Assembly (NCBI GenBank): GCA_002839415.1
Contig: PGXZ01000001.1
Coordinates: forward strand, 57,259 to 121,258
DNA length: 64,000 bases
Source of the DNA: Candidatus Saccharibacteria bacterium HGW-Saccharibacteria-1
GTDB taxonomy: Bacteria > Patescibacteriota > Saccharimonadia > Saccharimonadales > Saccharimonadaceae
Direction: 5' to 3'
The stretch's first letter is position 1, and the number at the start of each line of letters is the position of its first letter. Below, piece by piece: positions 13,208 through 13,350 of this stretch. A model generated the notes under the pieces. That model made no database searches. It had not been told where the DNA came from and saw only the letters and a program-made list of their open reading frames with translations. Position numbers and translations under genes: made by a program.

Positions 13208-13350
13208 ATTTTAGCGACAAGAGTATCGACTAAAGCCACCTCCGCTCATTCACTAAAGAATGTAAACATTTTTTCATTTCACTGAACTGCGCGACTTGTG
13301 ACTATTTTGCTACGGCAAAAATTCCCAAGTTCAACGTTGATCACAAAATT
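13208..13350 (-). repeat. tRNA-echo element 2: broken copy of the tRNA-Met T-arm/acceptor 3' half with a 58-nt insert
   Basis: Read on the minus strand: AGTCACAAGT (13293-13302), TTCA (13282-13285), ACTCTTGTCGCT (13212-13223), plus the shared motif GAATGAGCGGAGG (13238-13250). Confidence 0.6.

Follow-up and report, generated by a model that had tools for sequence, protein, structure and literature searches.

Behind the gene for an elongator tRNA-Met, on the minus strand of the window (the whole 64-kb stretch of DNA that was analysed), lies a short run of tRNA-derived and conserved pieces, here called element 2 (Table 1). A sister copy, element 1, lies elsewhere in the window. Genes near the two copies encode an oxidoreductase, an NTPase, an ASCH protein, a GH1 glycosidase, TilS and FtsH; nothing among them is recombinase-like, and no ORF was found in or beside either copy. 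No sigma-70-like promoter was found inside either copy, and a strong terminator precedes each.

Table 1. Features of element 2 and related copies. Positions are those of the window unless a contig of the same genome (G000) is named.
Feature	Position	Strand	Evidence or remark
tRNA-Met (CAU, elongator type), gene tied to element 2	13392-13468	-	ARAGORN; Rfam RF00005 69.2 bits
Terminator 1, 20-bp stem, then T run	13350-13396	-	sequence/terminator scan
Antisense arm TTGAACTTGGGA	13323-13334	-	11/12 to the complement of tRNA TCACAAGTTCAA
ACTTGGGA	13323-13330	-	
Mini-hairpin TTTTGC-CGTA-GCAAAA	13305-13320	-	family consensus TTYGC-N4-GCRAA
Sense echo of variable loop/T-stem 5' strand, AGTCACAAGT	13294-13303	-	9/10 to tRNA-Met
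Degraded conserved core, 69 nt	13225-13293	-	CM R1 65.3 bits, E 3.8e-13; HMM match 13215-13311, E 1.4e-10
Junction remnant CGCGCAGTTCAGTGAA in core	within 13225-13293	-	
P2 hairpin of core	13252-13277	-	2 mismatches
13-nt motif GAATGAGCGGAGG in core	13239-13251	-	
P3 GGCTTTAGTC of core	13228-13237	-	
CGAT, end of core	13225-13228	-	
Decayed copy of tRNA-Met 3' end	13206-13224	-	ACTCTTGTCGCT + AAAATCA
Terminator 2, two-way, common to element 2 and the convergent GH1 glycosidase gene	13179-13199	+	
Element 1, sister copy behind initiator-type tRNA-Met, layout alike, better kept	6535-6662	+	CM 93.1 bits; HMM match 6552-6656, E 9.5e-21
Type B copy behind tRNA-Ser(CGA)	G000 C20:48899-49090		exact 18/18 tail copy + own terminator
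Type B copy behind tRNA-Val(UAC), 14019-14095	G000 C16	-	17/18 tail copy + own terminator

The outer stem pairs of terminator 1 take in the last 5 nt of the tRNA-Met (TACCA/TGGTA). The partner of the antisense arm, TCACAAGTTCAA, is the T-stem 5' strand of the tRNA together with the start of its T-loop. At the far end of the element, ACTCTTGTCGCT (13213-13224, minus strand) agrees with the tRNA in 11 of 12 positions, and the tail after it reads AAAATCA instead of the GCTACCA of the tRNA; the 3' echo is decayed past 12 nt. Terminator 2 comes next, and in young copies elsewhere a separate terminator likewise comes after the 3' echo. The pieces listed in a preliminary description of this DNA are all present on the minus strand, though each lies 1 nt above the coordinate given there. 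The same description took 7 nt and TTCA behind the sense echo for a T-loop remnant and the start of an insert. Homology to better-kept copies identifies them instead as a degraded GGTTCGGCGTAGCGAATGA junction.

ARAGORN calls no tRNA or tmRNA at 13206-13350, and RF00005 gives no match there even at E<=10. The fold of element 2 has a z-score of -1.1, no better than shuffles, compared with -4.3 for element 1, and, compared with the orthologue in genome G162, both its P2a helix and its junction are broken up. Decay notwithstanding, element 2 is better conserved than its flanks: between its own genome and G162, identity within the element is 52-84%, whereas the flanks cannot be aligned. Element 2 (13206-13334, minus strand) is an old and partly degraded family member, present in G162 as well, and it is wearing out.

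The proposal that element 2 is a second copy of an element at 6513-6662 holds, in that the two share the core and their tRNA-derived segments fit the local tRNA. Formal alignment of elements 1 and 2 gives a local score of 34, compared with 15.6 +/- 2.3 for 1000 shuffles (maximum 30). Moreover, an HMM built from nine copies, all in other genomes and with no sequence of this genome, finds only two matches in the window, one at each element (Table 1). A search of 200 genomes with the 13-mer GAATGAGCGGAGG, allowing 1 mismatch, gave mostly noise, with similar control counts, and served only to seed the model; the seeds were eleven clear homologues elsewhere, all behind a same-strand tRNA whose identity varies.

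Run on 151 genomes of one Saccharimonadales family, the covariance model R1 recovers about 258 matches, which fall in 68 genomes with 1-15 in each. The DNA itself derives from groundwater metagenomes. Outside that bacterial family, only three weak matches were found in 146 other genomes of the phylum. The genome of the window carries 8 copies, all behind same-strand tRNAs, which amounts to 8 of its 41 tRNA genes: Met(i), Met(e), Phe, Ser(GGA), Ser(UGA), Trp, Gln(CUG) and Tyr. The 71 distinct copies include 57 that begin 42-86 nt past a tRNA, at 21 tRNA species in all, and 4 that form the second unit of a tandem array. Another 10 have no tRNA call. Four of these, within the top 30 loci, were inspected; three reach a contig edge, and one (L065) is tRNA-less in 3 kb. 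Upstream of L065 (G065 C33), L093 and L100 (G041) there is a terminator and a ...CCAGCCA or ...GACCA tail, but no tRNA can be recognised, as though its body had disappeared or been exchanged. Copies within ~200 nt of contig ends are seen at L035, L056, L070, L110 and L067, and such repeats are a probable cause of breaks at tRNA loci in short-read assemblies.

An exact 15-mer scan of genome contigs returned chance matches, with only 4 of 80 screened loci real, and the 99 loci found in viral contigs (IMG/VR, two exact words) included no real copy. Rfam 15 was searched with the window at the gathering threshold, with element 2 at E<=10 and with a well-kept copy at E<=5; there was no family match, RtT (RF00391) and self-cleaving ribozymes included, but only terminator-type noise. 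Full-text literature searches found no description of the family. The family thus appears to match no RNA family described in Rfam 15 and no literature description found.

The copies share one layout. The tRNA is followed by a terminator composed of an A-tract, a hairpin and a T-tract, a short spacer, an antisense copy of the T-arm and the mini-hairpin. Next come a sense copy of about tRNA positions 44-57 that ends in TTCGG, the core with its terminal (C)GAT, and a copy of the tRNA tail that starts at position 59 (58 in TTCA-type loops) and runs to 76. The unit measures ~150-200 bases and encodes no protein. ATG after GCGA would give a small ORF of 7-14 aa in the core of some copies and none in others (by eye), and a core ORF was rejected.

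The arms had been described as re-tailored to each local tRNA, and across the 57 tRNA-linked copies the upstream complement, the T-stem 5' echo and the 3' echo all prove cognate-specific. The 5' echo fits its cognate tRNA at 9.0 against 5.8 for non-cognate tRNAs, and the cognate ranks in the top 5% of all tRNAs in 30/57 copies. For the antisense T-arm the values are 10.9 and 6.8 (35/57), and for the 3' echo 11.2 and 5.0 (43/57). For the acceptor strand, the antisense arm shows no such specificity (cognate 5.0, non-cognate 4.8; top 5% in 2/57), so the T-arm/acceptor minihelix that had been suggested has no 5' acceptor partner. A tuning of the antisense arm to the TTCGG of the echo, with C opposite position 58, was also rejected; it occurs in only 14/57 copies, and the ungapped pairing measure is too noisy.

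In 11 of the 57 copies, an exact 18-19-nt copy of positions 59(58)-76 stands right after CGAT and ends at CCA, and an unrelated terminator comes next. One further tail copy is exact over 17 nt, and two agree at 17/18. The tRNA 3' end therefore brackets the insert as a direct repeat, as it does in tRNA-integrated genomic islands. No intact sense T-arm copy without a core was found behind the tRNAs of the genome itself, so the idea that the core alone is the mobile part is unsupported.

A second, unrelated core type (type B) ends in ...CGCGGGGTCGCGRRACGTGACCGA and has its echo from C56, in the same layout (Table 1). The type B motif recurs in L035 and, at tRNA-Gln (C24), behind the type A copy. 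An AAGAAA-hairpin-TTTCTT terminator had been taken for a mark of echo-bearing tRNAs, but the design is common behind the tRNAs of this genome. Many of these terminators have an A-tract-TAGAC...GTCTA-T-tract design, with or without a unit, and they may descend from terminators that units brought in. At the tRNA-Lys of the window (45918-45960), the terminator palindrome extends into the TCCA of the tRNA.

The core has a conserved fold. Covariation among the 71 distinct copies supports the P2a/P2 helix and the base of P3, and 17 of 20 core pairs are changed on both sides, typically as CG/UA (35/21) or AU/GC (27/24) swaps. Core covariation is 0.40 in an alignment that was fitted to the model and so favours structure, compared with 0.19 when shuffled (0/500 reach it) and <=0.18 with slid partners; the low value of the slid controls speaks for a real signal. 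Four core positions are never Watson-Crick and form two tandem G.A pairs in 5'-GCGAAUGA / 5'-GAAUGAGC. Because G-U pairs are frequent on the tRNA-sense strand, the fold belongs to that strand. The core is a three-way junction when the T-stem echo is counted as the third helix. Pairing of the antisense arm with both echo halves yields a four-way junction, which is the MFE fold of the well-kept copy L092. In nearly every MFE fold tested, the antisense arm, the mini-hairpin and the 5' echo form one long hairpin, which is absent from that of element 2. G.A and G-T pairs form in single-stranded DNA too, so the fold is no proof of RNA; it may act as RNA or as single-stranded DNA. From its covariation, its G-U pairs and an element better kept than its flanks, the core looks to be under selection.

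These properties recall a functional structured non-coding RNA of tRNA operons: an RtT-like trailer or read-through RNA whose 3' end mimics a tRNA tail, with the patchy distribution due to gain and loss of an accessory RNA gene. The covariation, the G.A positions and the restriction of G-U pairs to the tRNA-sense strand all speak for such an RNA, as do the survival of the element beyond its flanks in G000 and G162 and the young copies that end in ...CCA and then have their own terminator. However, no sigma-70-like promoter was found in the window copies, and tRNA and element are separated by a strong terminator whose stem reaches 20 bp. The element is present in only 68/151 genomes, at 0-15 copies and at changing tRNAs, and copies decay, with element 2 at z -1.1 and its P2a broken. 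G.A and G-T pairs are possible in single-stranded DNA as well. A functional RNA is regarded as unlikely.

The loci turn over among related genomes. Both tRNA-Met loci of the window are filled in G000 and in G162 of the same genus (orthologous, 76-80% identical). In three other genomes of the genus (G123, G056 and G187) both are empty, with tRNA, terminator and flank directly joined, although the G187 comparison is ambiguous as to which terminator is the original. In G116 (genus g42), tRNA-Ser(UGA) is followed by a new unit with an exact 18-nt echo, a terminator and an old-cassette remnant that starts 'GCTCCGA...'. The echo, terminator 2 and remnant align with the tRNA 3' end, the terminator and the older unit 'GCTCCGA...' of G183, which argues that new units are inserted between the body of the tRNA and what used to be its 3' end. 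In the tandem arrays L046, L103, L105 and L107, the tRNA-proximal unit scores best in 4/4.

In G041, the T-stems of tRNA-Arg(GCG) and tRNA-Ser(UGA) are unlike those of three congeners, while the first 47 nt are identical. The cassette at tRNA-Arg(GCG) is intact and its arms carry the new T-stem; at tRNA-Ser(UGA), the remnant is too decayed for its arms to be compared with the T-stem. This replacement of the T-stem points to recombination with variable left crossover points and no fixed cut. Mosaic loci in genus g42 comprise L094, L353, L355 and L357 for tRNA-Arg(GCG) and L361, L359, L360 and L048 for tRNA-Ser(UGA). In these mosaic tRNAs the 5' two-thirds are identical, the differences in the variable arm and T-stem are compensated, and they match the adjoining cassette arms where these are intact (tRNA-Arg GCG).

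Copies at different tRNAs of one genome can have near-identical cores and terminators and differ in the arms, the mini-hairpin and P3. L103 and L105 of G136 have 2 differences in 66 nt, and L109 and L110 are about 95% alike. Such cores would reflect either recent movement with re-targeting or patchy gene conversion. The tree of cores is poorly resolved, with 54 changes of the genome label compared with 55.9 shuffled, and 44 changes of the tRNA label compared with 48.3; neither label forms clear clusters, so the tree does not separate the two possibilities. A contig joint from a related population in a subsurface metagenome (run X9) has 13205-13350 replaced by 36 unrelated nt, with both terminators kept; the joint is weak (depth 4.6, a 33-nt side, 80% likeness). 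Another contig of the run carries the cassette at ~86% identity. The joint fits entry between tRNA body and 3' end poorly and is explained by no account considered.

No transposase, integrase or reverse transcriptase that tracks the element family was found in the 151 genomes. The carrier ratios that follow are descriptive only, since related genomes are not independent. A tyrosine-integrase island was rejected, as the units hold no ORF and PF00589 occurs about once per genome in 145/151, element or not. A single tyrosine recombinase of ~310 aa, presumably Xer-type, is the rule in almost all genomes of the bacterial family. Large serine recombinase islands were rejected as well, with the element in 43/88 PF07508-positive and 25/63 PF07508-negative genomes and so no association. 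A retroelement that uses tRNA-primed reverse transcription was discarded, with the element in 25/45 genomes that have RVT_1 and 43/106 that do not. A boundary fixed by an m1A58 stop is not consistent with an echo that starts at 58, 59 or 56, depending on T-loop and core type. The units are not MITEs either: their inverted parts are tRNA-derived and vary per copy, the duplication is 18-19 nt of tRNA, and no parent IS was found.

A tRNA 3' end repeated in direct orientation, spanning T-loop to CCA, is the mark that att sites classically leave, and the units could be mere scars, the attR-side remnants of larger tRNA-integrating islands that have lost their cargo. Such islands, with tyrosine or serine recombinases, do occur in Saccharibacteria. 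In the bacterial family, genes for large serine recombinases are frequent, and the genome of the window has 5. Against a scar stand the uniform size and layout over ~258 copies, a core under structural selection, the missing recombinase association, and the 71 inspected copies, in which no gene was found between tRNA and core. A scar is very improbable.

An IS200/IS605-derived element or omega-RNA was rejected: TnpB (PF07282) occurs in 3/151 genomes, and PF01797 in 28/151, none being the genome of the window. The RAYT-like family consists of ~205-aa HUH/Y1 proteins with the motifs NHYHLL and RYIHLNP (NF047646 51 bits, below the cut-off; for example L244:1309-1920, plus strand). Its genes occur in 28/151 genomes, and the element is present in 20/28 genomes with such a gene and in 48/123 without. 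A single one lies near a copy, 235 nt away (G077 C135). They are absent from the genome of the window, which is 98.9% complete, and from G136, G075 and G032.

These genes bear on a further explanation, a hairpin-type mobile element whose folded strand is read by a site-specific enzyme acting in trans, with a T-loop cut near 58/59. In this scheme, a duplex copy of the T-arm target would be re-formed by the antisense arm together with the split echo. The comparison is with CTX-phage attP(+) and integron attC, which are recombined by tyrosine recombinases, or with REPIN/RAYT and IS200/IS605 ends, which are recognised by HUH enzymes. In type A the junction falls precisely after TTCGA or TTCA, and in type B it runs precisely from C56; the antisense T-arm, mini-hairpin and echo form a hairpin in MFE folds, with a four-way junction in L092; arrays are polar like integron cassettes; and the element is carried by most genomes with a RAYT-like Y1 gene. 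Set against this, the genome of the window and the richest carriers (G136, G075 and G032) have no Y1 gene, TnpB is nearly absent, tyrosine and large serine recombinases show no association, and viral contigs gave no copy. Moreover, an enzyme by itself leaves the matching of the arms to a new tRNA unexplained. This explanation is also judged improbable, to much the same degree as a functional RNA.

Several known systems share features with the units. Tyrosine integrases reportedly insert genomic islands and prophages at a T-loop sublocation of tRNA genes (Williams 2002), with Islander-type att sites. Like islands and prophages in tRNA genes, the units are inserted in or next to the T-loop, leave the tRNA intact and directly repeat its 3' end to CCA, and they accrete in tandem with the newest copy next to the tRNA. 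In contrast to such islands, they have neither integrase nor cargo, measure about 200 bp and not kilobases, have a far-side T-arm split by a structured core, and bear an extra antisense T-arm and mini-hairpin.

Integron attC and CTX-phage attP(+) are folded single-strand recombination sites. As with these sites, structure in the units is conserved over sequence and is strand-specific, arrays grow at one anchor, and the inverted copies can re-form a double strand that resembles the target. The anchor of the units is a tRNA T-loop and not attI or dif, there is no IntI, no gene is carried, and their recombination as a folded strand is putative. REPIN/RAYT and non-autonomous IS200/IS605 elements (PATEs) are likewise short, protein-less, hairpin-rich and confined to one strand, and the scaffold with 18 nt of flank and a terminator resembles the end of a TnpB reRNA/omega-RNA. 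However, insertion of an IS200/IS605 element duplicates no target and copies no 18-nt stretch of a tRNA; TnpB is nearly absent here, and a Y1 gene is lacking in the genome of the window and in the richest carriers. RtT RNA and the 178-bp rtT repeats (RF00391) of the E. coli tyrT operon end in the last ~19 nt of a tRNA, CCA included. Like the units, they stand behind a tRNA gene and each ends in a copied tRNA tail with CCA. The units differ in having no sequence or structure match (cmscan), and RtT is known from one locus in enterobacteria while the units number hundreds of copies behind 21 tRNA species, with an antisense T-arm and a core that splits the T-loop.

The reading preferred here is that the family is a protein-less, non-autonomous recombination cassette anchored to tRNA 3' ends, which is given about an even chance of being right. 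A new unit would comprise terminator 1, the antisense T-arm, the mini-hairpin, the T-stem 5' echo with TTCGG and the structured core ending in CGAT, and would enter between the tRNA body and the former 3' end of the tRNA. The tRNA gene would stay intact and gain a new terminator, and what had been positions 59-76, CCA included, would be pushed downstream together with the old terminator and decay there. Spread between genomes at the same tRNA would occur mainly by homologous or homology-facilitated recombination, with homology provided on the left by the conserved tRNA gene and on the right by the tail copy that the cassette carries. We infer this because the T-stem is co-replaced, no enzyme was found and the right-hand homology is built in. 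Founding at new tRNAs, a rare event, would need a step beyond recombination that includes the matching of the arms. Candidates for that step are a trans-acting enzyme that reads the folded core and the T-arm mimic, or templated correction from the adjacent tRNA.

The conserved core counts against the cassette reading because passive DNA would not be expected to keep a fold. Recombination alone also leaves unexplained the near-identical cores at different tRNAs with different arms (G136, G041). The three-way-junction core sits exactly at the split of the T-loop copy, next to an antisense arm that restores a duplex image of the target, and it could itself be active: as a guide or catalytic module (RNA or single-stranded DNA), it would steer a protein-poor homing of the cassette into any tRNA gene that matches the arms, with the arms re-templated from the target at each move. 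That possibility is considered quite improbable.

If the cassette reading is correct, gene-less cassettes colonise tRNA genes of ultra-small bacteria, copying the tRNA tail while the tRNA is kept working. They would replace the tRNA terminator and could swap the 3' third of the tRNA between lineages. They would account for many 'broken tRNA' fragments, and probably for some contig breaks, in CPR genomes. The core adds a new structured motif with solid covariation. The reading also prompts one to ask by what route short DNA moves among genomes that are naturally transformable but poor in recombinases. Should there be an active mechanism, the arms, being tRNA-specific, could provide a natural system for programmable insertion.
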